This document shows, piece after piece, positions 367-9,160 of a stretch of DNA of 64,000 nucleotides. The DNA is taken from NCBI RefSeq assembly GCF_016903815.1, contig NZ_CP069973.1, one strand, 5' to 3'. The DNA comes from Escherichia coli. GTDB lineage: Bacteria; Pseudomonadota; Gammaproteobacteria; Enterobacterales; Enterobacteriaceae. Both the position numbers and the translations under genes were made by a program. The notes under the pieces were generated by a model. The model did not search any database and was not told where the DNA came from. It saw only the letters and a list, made by a program, of their open reading frames with translations. Each line of letters starts with the position of its first letter. The first letter of the stretch is position 1.

Positions 367-1740
367 ATGTCTGTACAGCAAATCGACTGGGATCTGGCCC
401 TGATCCAGAAATATAACTATTCCGGGCCACGATACACCTCGTACCCGACCGCGCTGGAGTTTTCAGAAGACTTCGGCGAACAGGCGTTTTTACAAGCCGT
501 GGCGCGCTATCCTGAGCGTCCATTATCTCTCTACGTACATATCCCGTTCTGCCATAAGCTTTGTTACTTCTGCGGTTGCAATAAGATTGTTACTCGCCAG
601 CAGCACAAGGCCGATCAGTATCTGGACGCGCTGGAGCAAGAAATCGTCCATCGTGCACCGCTTTTTGCCGGGCGCAAGGTGAGCCAGCTGCACTGGGGCG
701 GTGGTACGCCGACGTATCTGAACAAAGCGCAAATCAGCCGTCTGATGAAGCTGCTGCGCGAAAACTTCCAGTTCAATGCCGATGCGGAGATTTCGATCGA
801 AGTCGATCCGCGCGAAATCGAACTGGATGTACTCGATCATTTACGCGCCGAGGGCTTTAATCGCCTGAGCATGGGCGTGCAGGACTTCAACAAAGAAGTG
901 CAACGTCTGGTTAACCGCGAGCAGGATGAAGAGTTCATCTTTGCACTGCTTAACCATGCGCGTGAGATTGGCTTTACCTCCACCAACATCGACCTGATTT
1001 ACGGCCTGCCGAAACAAACGCCGGAGAGTTTCGCTTTTACCCTGAAACGCGTGGCGGAGCTGAACCCCGATCGTCTGAGCGTCTTTAACTATGCGCATCT
1101 GCCGACCATTTTTGCTGCTCAGCGCAAAATCAAAGATGCTGACTTGCCGAGTCCGCAGCAAAAACTCGATATCCTGCAGGAAACCATCGCCTTCCTGACG
1201 CAATCGGGCTATCAGTTTATCGGTATGGATCACTTTGCCCGTCCGGATGACGAACTGGCGGTGGCCCAGCGTGAAGGCGTGCTGCATCGTAACTTCCAGG
1301 GCTACACCACTCAGGGCGATACCGATCTGCTGGGGATGGGCGTTTCCGCCATCAGCATGATTGGCGACTGCTACGCGCAGAACCAGAAAGAGTTGAAGCA
1401 GTACTATCAGCAAGTGGATGAACAAGGCAATGCGCTGTGGCGTGGTATTGCGCTAACGCGTGATGACTGTATTCGCCGCGATGTGATTAAGTCGCTCATC
1501 TGCAACTTCCGTCTGGATTACGCTCCCATTGAGCAACAGTGGGATTTGCACTTCGCTGATTACTTTGCCGAAGATCTCAAGCTGCTCGCCCCGTTAGCAA
1601 AAGATGGGCTGGTGGATGTGGATGAGAAGGGGATTCAGGTGACGGCGAAAGGTCGCTTGCTGATCCGCAACATTTGCATGTGCTTTGATACCTATCTGCG
1701 CCAGAAAGCGCGGATGCAGCAGTTCTCACGGGTGATTTAA
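367..1740 (+). CDS. hemN: Oxygen-independent coproporphyrinogen III oxidase (radical SAM)
   Basis: 457 aa from ATG 367 (MSVQQIDWDLALIQKYNYSGPRYTSYPTA...); CxxxCxxC radical-SAM motif (CHKLCYFCGC); track ORF 361-1740 starts at upstream GTG. Confidence 0.95.
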   Translation: MSVQQIDWDLALIQKYNYSGPRYTSYPTALEFSEDFGEQAFLQAVARYPERPLSLYVHIPFCHKLCYFCGCNKIVTRQQHKADQYLDALEQEIVHRAPLFAGRKVSQLHWGGGTPTYLNKAQISRLMKLLRENFQFNADAEISIEVDPREIELDVLDHLRAEGFNRLSMGVQDFNKEVQRLVNREQDEEFIFALLNHAREIGFTSTNIDLIYGLPKQTPESFAFTLKRVAELNPDRLSVFNYAHLPTIFAAQRKIKDADLPSPQQKLDILQETIAFLTQSGYQFIGMDHFARPDDELAVAQREGVLHRNFQGYTTQGDTDLLGMGVSAISMIGDCYAQNQKELKQYYQQVDEQGNALWRGIALTRDDCIRRDVIKSLICNFRLDYAPIEQQWDLHFADYFAEDLKLLAPLAKDGLVDVDEKGIQVTAKGRLLIRNICMCFDTYLRQKARMQQFSRVI

Positions 1741-3572: not shown

Positions 3573-4622
3573 TTATTTCCTGATAGGCAGGTAAACCGAG
3601 AACTCGGTATGACCTGGCCAACTGGTAAATTCAATTTTGCCTGAATGCTGATCAATCAAATTACGGGCGATGGATAAGCCAAGCCCGGTGCCACCTTCGC
3701 GGCCACTGACCATCGGATAAAACAGCGTATCCTGCAAATGAGGCGGAATGCCCGGCCCGTTATCTTCCACATCAATTCGCGCCGCCAGCCGATAGCGCTC
3801 GCCGTGTAAGGTCAGTTGAAACGCGGTGCGGGTACGCAGAATGATTTCACCGCCTTCCGGCCCCAGCGCCTGTAGCGCATTGCGCACAATATTCAGCAAG
3901 ACCTGTTCAATTTGATCCGGGTCGTGCGCCAGTTCCGGCAGGCTGGGATCGTAATCACGAATCAACCGCACGTTGTCCGGCAGTTCCATCGACACCAACG
4001 TCACCACGCGTTCAGCCACTTTGTGAATACTTTCGGTAACGCGCGTACCGGGCAGTTGCGGTCCCAACAGACGGTCGACCAGATTTCGCAGCCGGTCCGC
4101 CTGTTCGATAATCACTTTGGTATATTCGAGTAGTGACGGGTCAGGTAATGCTTTGCTGAGTAGCTGCGCCGCGCCACGTAAACCGCCAAGCGGATTTTTA
4201 ATCTCATGTGCCAGGCCGCGCACTAAATCACGGGCAGCAACCTGCTGGGCGTGCTGTAGCTGTTCCTGACTTAAGCGGCGCTGGTTATCCATCGGTGCCA
4301 TCTCCAGCAGGATCATGCCGTCTGGCATACGCTGGGCCGTCACAGAAAGGATATGCGAGCGCCCGTCGATGACCAGCGTCACTTCGTTATCGGTAAAACC
4401 TTGCCCCGCCTCCAGACTTTCTTGCATCAGCTCGATATTTAATGAGAAGTAGCTCAATAGTTCCGGTAACGGTGTACCAAACAATTTGCGGGAGCTTTGG
4501 GCGAGCAGTTGTTGCGCGGCGGGGTTGGCGTAATGGATCGCCAGGTTGTCATCGATTAACAAAATACTGTTAATCAGCGAGTTGAGGATCTGCCCAGCAT
4601 CGGGCTGCGTGCCTGTTGCCAT
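3573..4622 (-). CDS. glnL: Nitrogen regulation sensor histidine kinase NtrB
   Basis: 349 aa; PAS-like N-terminus, H-box (HEIKNPLGG), ATPase G-box; directly upstream of glnG. Confidence 0.95.
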
Positions 4623-4643
4623 AAAGCAGTCTCCTGAACAGGT

Positions 4644-4660
4644 TGCACCATTTTAGTGCA
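4644..4660 (-). promoter_or_regulatory. NtrC binding site in glnL promoter region (TGCACCA-N3-TAGTGCA)
   Basis: tgcaccattttagtgca palindrome in glnA-glnL intergenic region. Confidence 0.6.
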
Positions 4661-4711
4661 TTATAGCTTTTTACGGATAAAAAGCGCGTAGCATCAGAGA
4701 ATTGACGGAGA

Positions 4712-4795
4712 AAAAAGCCCATGCAGAGATGGGCTGAAAGTTTCCACGGCAACTAAATCCCGGCGTTGTTGCGCCGGGTAGTACAACTTCAACTA
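4712..4795 (-). ncRNA. glnZ: glnA 3'UTR ending in rho-independent terminator; candidate GlnZ 3'UTR-derived sRNA
   Basis: Downstream of glnA stop on minus strand: hairpin cccggcgcaacaacgccggg, then agcccatctctgcatgggct followed by TTTTTT at ~4712-4742; boundaries approximate. Confidence 0.35.
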
Positions 4796-6205
4796 TTAGA
4801 CGCTGTAGTACAGCTCAAACTCTACCGGATGCGGAGTCATACGCACGCGGTCATCTTCTTCGCGACGCAGAGCGATGTACGCATCGATCGCTTCATCAGT
4901 GAACACACCACCGGCTTTCAGGAACTCGCGGTCCAGATCCAGTTCGTTCAGTGCTTCTTCCAGAGAACCAGCAACCTGTGGGATCTCTTTCGCTTCTTCC
5001 GGCGGCAGGTCATACAGGTTTTTGTCCATCGCTTCGCCCGGATGGATCTTGTTCTTGATACCGTCAAGACCGGCCATCAGCAGGGCAGCAAAGCACAGGT
5101 ACGGGTTAGCCGCCGGGTCCGGGAAACGTACTTCGATACGACGTGCTTTCGGAGAAGAAACCACCGGAATACGGATAGACGCAGAACGGTTGCGTGCAGA
5201 GTAAGCCAGCATTACCGGTGCTTCGTAGCCCGGGACCAGACGCTTGTAAGAGTTGGTGGTCGGGTTTGCCAGGGCATTAATCGCTTTCGCGTGTTTGATT
5301 ACGCCGCCAATATAGTACAGCGCCTGCTCAGACAGACCTGCGTATTTGTCGCCTGCGAACAGGTTGACGCCGTTTTTAGACAGCGACATGTGGCAGTGCA
5401 TACCGGAGCCGTTATCACCGAACATCGGTTTTGGCATAAAGGTCGCGGTTTTACCGAAGCGGTGCGCTACGTTGTGCACAACATATTTGTAGATCTGAAT
5501 TTCGTCAGCTTTTTTGGTCATGGTATTGAAGCGGGTAGCCACTTCGTTCTGACCAGCAGTCGCTACTTCGTGGTGATGGGCTTCAACCACCAGGCCCATC
5601 TGTTCCATCACCAGACACATTTCAGAACGAATATCCTGAGCAGAGTCTACCGGCGGAACCGGGAAGTAACCGCCTTTCACTGCCGGACGGTGACCTTTGT
5701 TACCACCTTCGTATTGGGTGGAGGAGTTCCATGCGCCTTCGATATCGTCGATAGCAACGTGAGAACCGGAGATAGATGATCCGAAACGGATGTCATCGAA
5801 CAGGAAGAATTCAGGTTCTGGCCCGAACAGTACGGTGTCGGCAATGCCAGTGGAACGCAGGTAATCTTCGGCGCGCTTCGCAATGGAGCGCGGGTCACGG
5901 TCATAGCCTTGCAGGGTGCCAGGTTCAAGGATGTCGCAACGGATAATCAGGGTGGAGTCGGCGAAGAACGGGTCAATCACTGCGGTGGATGCGTCTGGCA
6001 TCAGCACCATGTCGGACTCGTTAATGCCTTTCCAGCCGCCAATCGAGGAGCCGTCAAACATTTTGCCTTCTTCGAAGAATTCAGCATTCACCTGATGAGC
6101 AGGGATAGTGACGTGCTGTTCTTTACCTTTAGTATCGGTGAAGCGCAAATCAACAAACTTCACTTCGTGCTCGTTCAGCATCGTCAGTACGTGTTCAGCG
6201 GACAT
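4796..6205 (-). CDS. glnA: Glutamine synthetase (type I)
   Basis: 469 aa [35 protein letters not shown]...; adenylylation-site region and C-terminus ...EFELYYSV. Confidence 0.97.
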
Positions 6206-6287: not shown

Positions 6288-6305
6288 AAGCGAAATCTGT
6301 GCCAA
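6288..6305 (-). promoter_or_regulatory. glnAp2 sigma-54 promoter (-24 TGGCAC / -12 element)
   Basis: Minus-strand TTGGCACAGATTTCGCTTTATC about 85 bp upstream of glnA ATG. Confidence 0.8.
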
Positions 6306-6354: not shown

Positions 6355-6428
6355 GGGCTGCACCATGATGTGAATGTTGCACCAATATAGTGCTTCAATG
6401 GAAACATTAAGCACCATATTGGTGCAAT
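6355..6428 (-). promoter_or_regulatory. NtrC enhancer sites upstream of glnA
   Basis: Repeated TGCACCA...TGGTGCA-type palindromes (tgcaccatgatg..., ttgcaccaatatagtgc, gcaccatattggtgca). Confidence 0.75.
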
Positions 6429-6577
6429 GACCTTTGGATAACCCTTTTTATGCTCCGTGAAAGCAATCACAAAGGGACTCTGCAATACTTGTTTGCGGAG
6501 GATGTTTGTGATCCTGTTTTGTAGTGCGATTAATCCGTGTACAATAACGCGCTATTTCTAATGCCTGAGGCAAAGTT

Positions 6578-8401
6578 GTGATCGAAAAATTGCGTAATAT
6601 CGCCATCATCGCGCACGTAGACCATGGTAAAACCACCCTGGTAGACAAGCTGCTCCAACAATCCGGTACGTTCGACTCTCGTGCCGAAACCCAAGAGCGC
6701 GTGATGGACTCCAACGATTTGGAGAAAGAGCGTGGGATTACCATCCTCGCGAAAAACACCGCTATCAAATGGAATGATTACCGTATCAACATCGTTGATA
6801 CCCCGGGGCACGCCGACTTCGGTGGTGAAGTTGAACGTGTAATGTCCATGGTAGACTCAGTGCTGCTGGTGGTTGACGCATTTGACGGCCCGATGCCGCA
6901 AACGCGCTTCGTAACCAAAAAAGCGTTTGCTTACGGCCTGAAGCCGATTGTTGTTATCAACAAAGTTGACCGCCCTGGCGCGCGTCCTGACTGGGTTGTG
7001 GATCAGGTATTCGACCTGTTCGTTAACCTCGACGCGACCGACGAGCAGCTGGACTTCCCGATCGTTTACGCTTCTGCGCTGAACGGTATCGCGGGTCTGG
7101 ACCACGAAGATATGGCGGAAGACATGACCCCGCTGTATCAGGCGATTGTTGACCACGTTCCTGCGCCGGACGTTGACCTTGACGGTCCGTTCCAGATGCA
7201 GATTTCTCAGCTCGATTACAACAGCTATGTTGGCGTTATCGGCATTGGCCGCATCAAGCGCGGTAAAGTGAAGCCGAACCAGCAGGTCACTATCATCGAT
7301 AGCGAAGGCAAAACCCGTAACGCGAAAGTCGGTAAAGTGCTGGGCCACCTCGGTCTGGAACGTATCGAAACCGACCTGGCGGAAGCTGGCGATATCGTGG
7401 CGATCACGGGCCTGGGCGAACTGAACATTTCTGACACCGTTTGCGACACGCAAAACGTTGAAGCGCTGCCGGCACTCTCCGTTGATGAGCCGACCGTTTC
7501 TATGTTCTTCTGCGTTAACACCTCGCCGTTCTGCGGTAAAGAAGGTAAGTTCGTAACGTCTCGTCAGATCCTGGATCGTCTGAACAAAGAACTGGTACAC
7601 AACGTTGCTCTGCGCGTAGAAGAAACCGAAGACGCCGATGCGTTCCGCGTTTCTGGTCGTGGCGAACTGCACCTGTCTGTTCTGATCGAAAACATGCGTC
7701 GTGAAGGTTTCGAACTGGCGGTATCCCGTCCGAAAGTTATCTTCCGTGAAATCGACGGTCGTAAACAAGAGCCGTATGAAAACGTGACTCTGGACGTTGA
7801 AGAACAGCATCAGGGTTCTGTAATGCAGGCGCTGGGCGAACGTAAAGGCGACCTGAAAAACATGAATCCAGACGGTAAAGGCCGCGTACGTCTCGACTAC
7901 GTGATCCCAAGCCGTGGTCTGATTGGTTTCCGTTCTGAGTTCATGACCATGACTTCCGGTACGGGTCTGCTGTACTCCACCTTCAGCCACTACGACGACG
8001 TACGTCCGGGTGAAGTGGGTCAGCGTCAGAATGGCGTACTGATCTCTAACGGTCAGGGTAAAGCGGTAGCGTTCGCGCTGTTCGGTCTGCAGGATCGCGG
8101 TAAGCTGTTCCTCGGTCACGGTGCAGAAGTTTACGAAGGTCAGATTATCGGTATTCATAGCCGCTCTAACGACCTGACTGTAAACTGCCTGACCGGTAAG
8201 AAACTGACCAACATGCGTGCTTCCGGTACTGACGAAGCCGTTGTTCTGGTTCCGCCTATCCGCATGACTCTGGAACAAGCTCTGGAGTTCATCGATGATG
8301 ACGAACTGGTAGAAGTGACTCCGACCTCTATCCGTATTCGTAAACGTCACCTGACGGAAAACGATCGTCGTCGCGCCAACCGCGCACCGAAAGACGATTA
8401 A
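6578..8401 (+). CDS. typA: Ribosome-associated translational GTPase BipA/TypA
   Basis: 607 aa, GTG start; G-domain motifs [22 protein letters not shown]-like domains. Confidence 0.95.
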
Positions 8402-8454: not shown

Positions 8455-9160
8455 CACAGAAAACCCCCAGCTAGGCTGGGGGTTCCGGAAAGCTTTCAGC
8501 TTTGAGCCAGTTATTAAAACCCCTTTTGATTTGTTAAAACACCTTGCGGTCTGGCAACTGCAAGTGTCAAACAAGAAATCAAAAGGGGGTCCCAATGGGG
8601 AACGAAAAGAGCTTAGCGCACACCCGATGGAACTGTAAATATCACATAGTTTTTGCGCCAAAATACCGAAGACAGGTGTTCTACAGAGAGAAGCGTAGAG
8701 CAATAGGCAGTATTTTGAGAAAGCTGTGTGAGTGGAAAAGCGTACGGATTCTGGAAGCTGAATGCTGTGCAGATCATATCCATATGCTTGTGGAGATCCC
8801 GCCCAAAATGAGCGTATCCGGGTTTATGGGATATCTGAAAGGGAAAAGCAGTCTGATGCTTTACGAGCAGTTTGGTGATTTGAAATTCAAATACAGGAAC
8901 AGGGAGTTCTGGTGCAGAGGGTACTACGTCGATACAGTGGGTAAGAACACGGCGAAGATACAGGATTACATAAAGCACCAGCTTGAAGAGGATAAAATGG
9001 GAGAGCAGTTATCGATTCCCTATCCGGGCAGCCCGTTTACGGGCCGTAAGTAACGAAGTTGGATGCAAATGTCAGATCGTGTGCGCCTGTTAGGGCGCGG
9101 CTGGTAAGAGAGCCTTATAGGCGCATTTGAAAAACCTCCGGCTATGCCGGAGGATATTTA
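8455..9160 (+). mobile_element. IS200/IS605-family insertion sequence (IS200-like, ~0.7 kb); ends approximate
   Basis: Single tnpA with HxH Y1-transposase signature, structured leader (cccccagctaggctggggg hairpin and RBS-sequestering stem) typical of IS200; no inverted repeats expected for this family. Confidence 0.7.
8595..9053 (+). CDS. tnpA: IS200-family Y1 (HUH) transposase TnpA
   Basis: 152 aa from ATG 8595: MGNEKSLAHTRWNCKYHIVFAPKYRRQVFY...HIHMLVEIPPK...; HxH motif and Tyr-containing C-terminal region. Confidence 0.85.
   Translation: MGNEKSLAHTRWNCKYHIVFAPKYRRQVFYREKRRAIGSILRKLCEWKSVRILEAECCADHIHMLVEIPPKMSVSGFMGYLKGKSSLMLYEQFGDLKFKYRNREFWCRGYYVDTVGKNTAKIQDYIKHQLEEDKMGEQLSIPYPGSPFTGRK

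Follow-up and report, generated by a model that had tools for sequence, protein, structure and literature searches.

The glnA 3' untranslated region of an Escherichia coli genome encodes the short, O157-type form of the small RNA GlnZ

Organization of the glnA-glnL locus

The DNA analysed here, referred to as the window, is a stretch of 64,000 nucleotides (64 kb) from Escherichia coli, and all features of its glnA-glnL locus lie on the minus strand. The glutamine synthetase gene glnA is a 469-amino-acid open reading frame at 4796..6205, assigned from the ORF list and from matching RefSeq records (glnA, glutamate--ammonia ligase), and it ends with a TAA stop codon at 4798..4796. The downstream limit of the locus is glnL (ntrB) at 3573..4622, with its ATG at 4622, as given by the ORF list and the RefSeq annotation of the matching records. 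Upstream of glnA, the sequence contains the sigma-54 promoter glnAp2 (TGGCACAGATTTCGCT, 6289..6304), itself preceded by NtrC-type palindromes at about 6430..6370. A TATAAT box (4665..4660) is located upstream of the glnL ATG and overlaps the palindrome TGCACTAAAATGGTGCA (4660..4644). Together these elements (4644..4665) lie outside the small RNA described below, and we take them, from the NtrC consensus, to be the glnL promoter and an NtrC site. This stretch is unchanged in an alignment of all three E. coli 3'UTR types.

The glnA 3'UTR is 85 nucleotides long (4711..4795), counted from the first base past the glnA stop codon to the last T of a T run. From its match to strain EDL933, its length, and its fold, we identified it as the short (O157-type, Class I) form of GlnZ, also called EsrF; the glnA mRNA is its parent transcript. 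The order of elements in the RNA after the stop codon is UAGUUGAAGUUGUACUA-CCCGGCG-CAACAA-CGCCGGG-AUUUAGUUGCCGUGGAAACUUUC-AGCCCAU-CUCUGC-AUGGGCU-UUUUU. The 5' hairpin, hereafter hairpin 1 (CCCGGCG-CAACAA-CGCCGGG, 4759..4778, nt 18-37 of the 3'UTR), was found by hairpin scan and folding and has a stem of seven pairs, all of them G-C. It is followed by the seed region GUUGCCGUGGAAACUUU (4737..4753), which includes the published 12-nt core UUGCCGUGGAAA at 4752..4741. A Rho-independent terminator, AGCCCAT-CTCTGC-ATGGGCT plus T6 (4711..4735), was likewise recovered by scan and fold. Its stem-loop, with a 7-bp stem, occupies 4735..4716, or nt 61-80 past the stop, and the T6 run (4716..4711) ends at nt 85. 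This terminator is expected to form the Hfq-binding 3' end of GlnZ.

In the predicted fold of the 85-nt RNA, an open linker joins hairpin 1 to the terminator; the minimum free energy (MFE) is -28.3 kcal/mol, and the z-score relative to shuffled sequences is -2.27. An earlier note on this DNA had described a GC hairpin downstream of the glnA stop and a terminator with T6 some 55-85 nt past it, upstream of the glnL promoter/NtrC site. Both structures are present, the distances are accurate since the T6 run ends at nt 85, and the TATAAT box and palindrome lie where the note had placed the promoter and NtrC site. A local scan found two terminator-like sites in 1 kb, against 0.7 +/- 0.9 in shuffled sequences, which is weak evidence for the hairpin and terminator. 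That these structures are real follows instead from the conservation of a seed-plus-terminator module between glnA and glnL across species, described below.

Several other RNA elements were matched by Rfam in the window. An ES222 sRNA match (131 bits; gathering score 62) lies at 6389..6496 on the plus strand, in the glnA-typA spacer and opposite to glnA; it probably represents the typA (bipA) leader and shares sequence with the NtrC-type palindromes that precede glnAp2. In Enterobacter and Cedecea (loci L011 and L038), weaker copies are found at the same place. An STnc490 Hfq-binding RNA match (146 bits) lies at 8462..8585 on the plus strand, just past a 607-amino-acid ORF (6578..8401) that corresponds to typA of EDL933, and looks like another 3'UTR-type sRNA adjoining the glnA locus. 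Matches to SECIS_3 (a selenocysteine insertion element; 39032..39090), naRNA4 (58131..58208), and ES036 (63213..63254), all on the minus strand and above the gathering score, are unrelated to GlnZ.

Identity with O157-type GlnZ and relation to other forms

Across the 173-nt glnA-glnL spacer, a single position, nt 107 (window 4689), distinguishes the window from E. coli O157:H7 EDL933. As this sole mismatch comes after the terminator, the window RNA and its EDL933 counterpart agree at every base (85/85 nt), and no difference was found in position, seed, or terminator. The window has A at the mismatch and EDL933 has T; the site lies between the terminator, 22 nt away, and the glnL promoter. T is also found in K-12-like and TH9F11 sequences, and strain 7/2 is identical to the window. 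The EDL933 3'UTR of 85 nt has been described as "O157 type" GlnZ (PMC9731577), and the same RNA as "Class I GlnZ / EsrF" (Walling et al., bioRxiv 10.1101/2022.04.01.486790) and as "EsrF" (Jia et al., PMC8092317). The feature is thus not new. The conserved GlnZ seed has been reported as 5'-UUGCCGUGGAAA-3' (PMC9731577); in the 64 kb analysed, an exact copy is found once, on the minus strand at 4752..4741, directly 5' of the terminator, against 0.02 copies expected by chance. The proposal of the earlier note, that the glnA 3'UTR yields a GlnZ-type sRNA as an alignment to published GlnZ could reveal, is therefore upheld by the match to the O157 type; with K-12 glnZ, the alignment has only seed and terminator in common.

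Three glnA 3'UTR types have been distinguished in E. coli, of 197 nt (K-12), 85 nt (O157), and 230 nt (O111) (Miyakoshi et al., PMC9731577). The glnA-glnL spacer was matched in 5425 of 5426 complete E. coli genomes and occurs in three length variants corresponding to these types. K-12 GlnZ (b4836, 194 nt, Class III), which is annotated in the MG1655 RefSeq record, derives from the same locus and shares the seed (AGTTGCCGTGGAAACTTT), the terminator (AGCCCATCTCTGCATGGGCTTTTTT), and the validated targets. Its seed, however, follows right after the stop codon, about 150 nt including a REP insertion separate seed from terminator, and hairpin 1 is missing, whereas seed and terminator are directly adjacent in the window. 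The window and the K-12-like sequence agree throughout the last 35 nt of glnA; past them, only seed and terminator are in common, and the window RNA is not the same form as the 194-nt K-12 RNA. This limited likeness agrees with a report that a blastn query with K-12 GlnZ failed to find the EPEC ortholog (PMC8550237).

In the 185-nt 3'UTR of Salmonella enterica (Class II), the seed adjoins the terminator as it does in the window, while the stretch from stop to seed is far longer. RNase E processes Salmonella GlnZ, which represses sucA and glnP. An extra G beside its seed abolishes regulation of aceE and adds deoD as a target; the window RNA has a U there (nt 41). The O111-type 3'UTR shares the window's backbone of hairpin 1, seed, and terminator and differs by a 145-nt insertion immediately past hairpin 1 (373..517 in locus L002, the TH9F11 locus used for the alignment; in the window it would follow 4759). 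The insertion has been described as 98 nt flanked by AGGUUCAAA repeats in the published GlnZ work. In 285 other genomes, the best match is a diverged copy of the insert (80-90% identity), and some genomes match at two places; the insert thus behaves in the manner of a small repeated or mobile element. The TH9F11 locus also has the seed flank GGAAATTTC where the window has GGAAACTTTC, one C fewer; the missing base lies immediately 3' of the 12-nt core of the seed, and its loss could change pairing that extends beyond the core, for example with sucA.

The layout of GlnZ, in which the mRNA terminator serves as the Hfq-binding 3' end and the seed lies upstream of it, is also that of SdhX, CpxQ, and SroC, 3'UTR-derived Hfq sRNAs released by RNase E, according to the background in PMC9731577. 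Their sequences and parental genes are unrelated to GlnZ.

Conservation of a seed-plus-terminator module

One genome per species was scanned for the pattern GCCGTGGAAACTTTN{1,3}GCCC, and at least 120 loci matched. Among the 120 matches listed, 99 lie beside glnA, glnL, or both, in every case on the strand of glnA, in genera including Enterobacter, Citrobacter, Pantoea, Erwinia, Serratia, Yersinia, Edwardsiella, and Dickeya. The other 21 listed matches are isolated and mostly in other phyla; about 26 chance matches had been estimated by hand. A hairpin followed by a run of at least five T just past the seed was found in 97/99 linked and 0/21 unlinked loci among the matches listed, and the sequences of the two linked loci that lack it end at contig ends. 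Sequence conservation with GlnZ, one of the points on which the earlier note would have its proposal judged, is seen as a seed and terminator kept between glnA and glnL across species.

Conservation extends beyond the searched pattern. A T-rich tract upstream of the seed is conserved, and GTT precedes GCCG in 95-97 of 97 species. Of the linked loci, 97/99 retain the stem GCCCAU(C)..(G)AUGGGC, followed by T6 in 88/97 and T7 in 9/97. The terminator stem is almost invariant, with isolated paired changes only (GCCCGC..GCGGGC and GCCCATT..AATGGGC), so that covariation neither supports nor undermines the structure. The commonest terminator in other species has an 8-bp stem and a UUCG loop; the E. 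coli sequences (window, K-12-like, and TH9F11) have the 7-bp stem and CUCUGC loop.

The distance from stop codon to seed, by contrast, ranges from 15 to 220 nt across the linked loci. Hairpin 1-like sequences (CCCGGCGC..GCGTCGGG) occupy the same position in five Enterobacter loci, while other genera have different GC hairpins or none between stop and seed. GlnZ has been described as unusual in being only partly conserved, with seed and terminator kept and the remainder variable (PMC8550237). The cross-species pattern, as read from the scanned sequences, agrees with this published view of a minimal seed-plus-terminator module that carries lineage-specific insertions.

Pairing of the seed with target leaders

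We searched for duplexes in a local scan with the seed region only, against target leaders taken from K-12 rather than from the window's strain. The best duplex with sucA lies at -48..-33 relative to the start codon (-20.4 kcal/mol; 5/300 shuffled seeds as good), that with glnP at -22..-11 (-18.4 kcal/mol; 8/300), and that with aceE at -105..-91 (-20.8 kcal/mol; 2/300). All three positions fit the published sites. Scanning the whole 85-nt RNA against the same leaders gave unrealistically long duplexes (-50 to -55 kcal/mol) that were little better than those of shuffled sequences, and this approach was discarded in favor of the seed-region scan.

The centre of the seed (CGUGGA, nt 48-53) has a predicted probability of being unpaired of 0.86-0.96. 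Over the 12-nt core, the mean is 0.61, and the MFE structure pairs part of the seed with the 5' end of the RNA; the predicted openness of the seed is thus moderate.

The O157-type RNA has been seen on northern blots at the size of the 3'UTR together with processed species, and it is induced by growth on glutamine or by nitrogen starvation (PMC9731577; bioRxiv 10.1101/2022.04.01.486790). The O157-type allele has also been transplanted chromosomally into K-12 (PMC9731577). The O157-type/Class I RNA represses glnP, sucA, and aceE through its seed, seed mutants lose repression, and the compensatory target mutation glnP-M1 restores it (bioRxiv 10.1101/2022.04.01.486790).

Transcription, release, and alternative explanations

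Taken together, the data make it very probable that the window's 3'UTR is short GlnZ, made as part of an NtrC/sigma-54-driven glnA transcript, released by RNase E and Hfq, and repressing sucA, glnP, and aceE through its seed. The anatomy, the EDL933 sequence match, the seed-target complementarity, and the conservation across Enterobacterales come from the present analysis, and the induction, the dependence on RNase E and Hfq, and the target repression from the published work. Under nitrogen limitation, NtrC would activate the sigma-54 promoter glnAp2, and the resulting glnA transcript would stop at the intrinsic terminator (4735..4711). RNase E, with Hfq, would then sever the 3'UTR from the coding part of the mRNA. 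In the freed RNA, the open seed GUUGCCGUGGAAACUUU would pair with the leaders of sucA and aceE and with the ribosome-binding region of glnP. Repression of 2-oxoglutarate dehydrogenase, the pyruvate dehydrogenase E1 component, and the glutamine transporter would in this way tie carbon flux to nitrogen supply.

Walling et al. describe GlnZ as NtrC-dependent (bioRxiv 10.1101/2022.04.01.486790); both glnAp2 and the NtrC-type palindromes upstream of glnA are recognizable by sequence in the window. For the K-12 and Salmonella alleles, processing requires RNase E and Hfq, and repression requires release from the mRNA (published work including PMC9731577). RNase E sites flank the glnA stop codon in K-12, and the upstream site is conserved in Salmonella (PMC9731577). 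A motif scan with the RNase E consensus RN|WUU found AGUUU inside the end of the glnA coding region (4817..4821, minus strand), a candidate for this conserved "upstream" site. The scan also found GAUUU at the 3' foot of hairpin 1 (4755..4759, minus strand), with predicted unpaired probabilities of 0.00 for G37 and 0.99 for nt 38-40. We infer that the short allele may be cut here (GA|UUU, nt 38/39); the predicted product is a core sRNA of about 47 nt with UUUAGUUGCC at its 5' end. The same UUUAGUUGCC context follows straight after the stop codon in K-12.

A different origin and function have been proposed for the same RNA. In the EsrF model (Jia et al. 2021, PMC8092317), the 85-nt RNA arises as a primary transcript, with a promoter of its own in the end of glnA, is repressed by NtrC, and activates flhB: GGGAUUUAG pairs with CUAAAUCCC of the flhB leader and relieves Rho termination, leading to motility and virulence. 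EsrF was reported to be higher at high ammonium, with an independent promoter (Jia et al., PMC8092317). The window RNA does contain GGGATTTAG at nt 35-43, and CTAAATCCC is found at -93 of K-12 flhB, but a 9-nt match is weak evidence alone, and the GGG of the pairing motif lies inside the hairpin 1 stem, where its predicted probability of being unpaired is 0.00. With regard to the promoter, a consensus scan of 4300..5300 on either strand, which a weak promoter could escape, found no sigma-70-like promoter. The final 35 nt of glnA match the K-12-like sequence exactly, and for the K-12 gene, PBAD-glnA has been reported to yield hardly any GlnZ unless arabinose is added. Furthermore, two independent groups found the RNA to be induced by nitrogen limitation, and both state their disagreement with Jia et al. 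(PMC9731577; bioRxiv 10.1101/2022.04.01.486790). We therefore consider the EsrF model very unlikely to describe this RNA, although flhB may be an additional target.

The region could also be read as nothing but a glnA terminator with a stabilizing hairpin and no trans-acting role. Any operon-internal terminator would look alike, the local scan for terminator-like sites barely exceeds chance, and deletion of the terminator in K-12 slightly lowers GlnA (PMC9731577), which indicates that the terminator stabilizes the mRNA. What such a reading leaves unexplained is the 17-nt unpaired sequence beside the terminator, which hardly varies, if at all, among genera of several Enterobacterales families, in contrast to its surroundings, and which is complementary to three validated targets. 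The invariance of the seed, together with the loss of repression in seed mutants of the short allele and its restoration by glnP-M1 (bioRxiv 10.1101/2022.04.01.486790), contradicts a plain terminator, and we regard this possibility as extremely improbable.

Within the preferred reading of the 3'UTR as short GlnZ, the role of hairpin 1 deserves separate consideration. Rather than being a passive insertion, hairpin 1 with the following AUUUAGUU might act as a weak first terminator or as a barrier to 3' exonucleases, and so set how much glnA mRNA carries or releases GlnZ. The scan flagged it as terminator-like (seven G-C pairs, with five T among the next eight bases), and the RNase E motif sits at its 3' foot. 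Where the stop-to-seed stretch is at least 30 nt, 68 of 69 species fold at -10 kcal/mol or better, with a median z-score of -3.6, and Serratia and related loci keep a hairpin of their own through a paired G-C to A-T change (GCGCCGTC..GACGGCGC versus GCGCCATC..GATGGCGC). On the other hand, stop and seed are only 15-24 nt apart in 27/96 species, which leaves no room for a hairpin and makes it dispensable for GlnZ itself. Palindromes are also a normal feature of insertions such as REP elements, so that structure in the hairpin 1 stretch is no proof of selection, and swapping the 3'UTR types in K-12 had a negligible effect on GlnA and NtrC levels (PMC9731577). On this evidence, we regard a terminator or barrier function as conceivable but rather doubtful.

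A more specific version would make hairpin 1 and GA|UUU a functional module, in which the hairpin caps the 3' end of glnA against exonucleases after cleavage and sets the yield of the ~47-nt core; we think this unlikely. If it were true, the short allele would, together with the contested GGGAUUUAG-flhB pairing, have properties that the K-12 allele lacks.

Distribution in E. coli and annotation

The short form was counted with a 60-nt query across the junction of hairpin 1 and seed, which found the junction unbroken in 2857/5426 complete E. coli genomes (52.7%), including O157:H7 and ST131 strains. In a further 993/5426 genomes, the junction is broken past hairpin 1, which fits the 994 genomes that carry the O111-type insert at 95% identity or more. 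The remaining ~1575 genomes should be of the K-12 type. By these counts, no other allele is as common in E. coli as the short one. Strain EC31, in which the 3' 59% of the query matched, was considered as a possible fourth 3'UTR type and rejected: its spacer of 285 nt has the K-12 length and its GlnA is a variant, so that it is probably a K-12 type with a divergent glnA end.

Among the short-type RefSeq records listed, none has an annotated feature at the match. Rfam 15 contains no GlnZ family, and no match with a GlnZ name was obtained at either threshold. The window does match RF02766, Ysr49 (Yersinia sRNA 49), with 34.1 bits at 4711..4815 on the minus strand, and the same glnA 3' end scores 43.9-44.4 bits in Cedecea and Yersinia nurmii (L038, 12097..12242; L047, 3117..3267); the gathering score of 95 bits is not reached in any of the three. 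In the alignment, the 3' 45 nt of the Ysr49 model (GCCGuGGAAACUUUUgGCCCauCU..GGauGGGCuUUUUU) cover the seed and terminator of the window RNA, while the model's 5' two-thirds have no match there. Given these sub-threshold scores and the unmatched 5' part, Ysr49 appears to be the Yersinia counterpart, probably the Yersinia GlnZ ortholog, and not a family that contains the window RNA; being sub-threshold, the match was not used for membership. No link between Ysr49 and GlnZ was found in the literature searched, where the relevant Ysr49 paper mentions neither GlnZ nor glnA and the GlnZ preprint does not mention Yersinia.

Since three groups have already characterized this RNA, its recognition in the window has no discovery value. 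The practical value lies elsewhere: the majority allele of E. coli GlnZ is unannotated in the records listed, Rfam 15 lacks a GlnZ family, and a K-12-based search overlooked the EPEC ortholog. With a covariance or sequence model of the seed-plus-terminator module, this gap would be closed throughout Enterobacterales, and such a model would probably absorb Ysr49.
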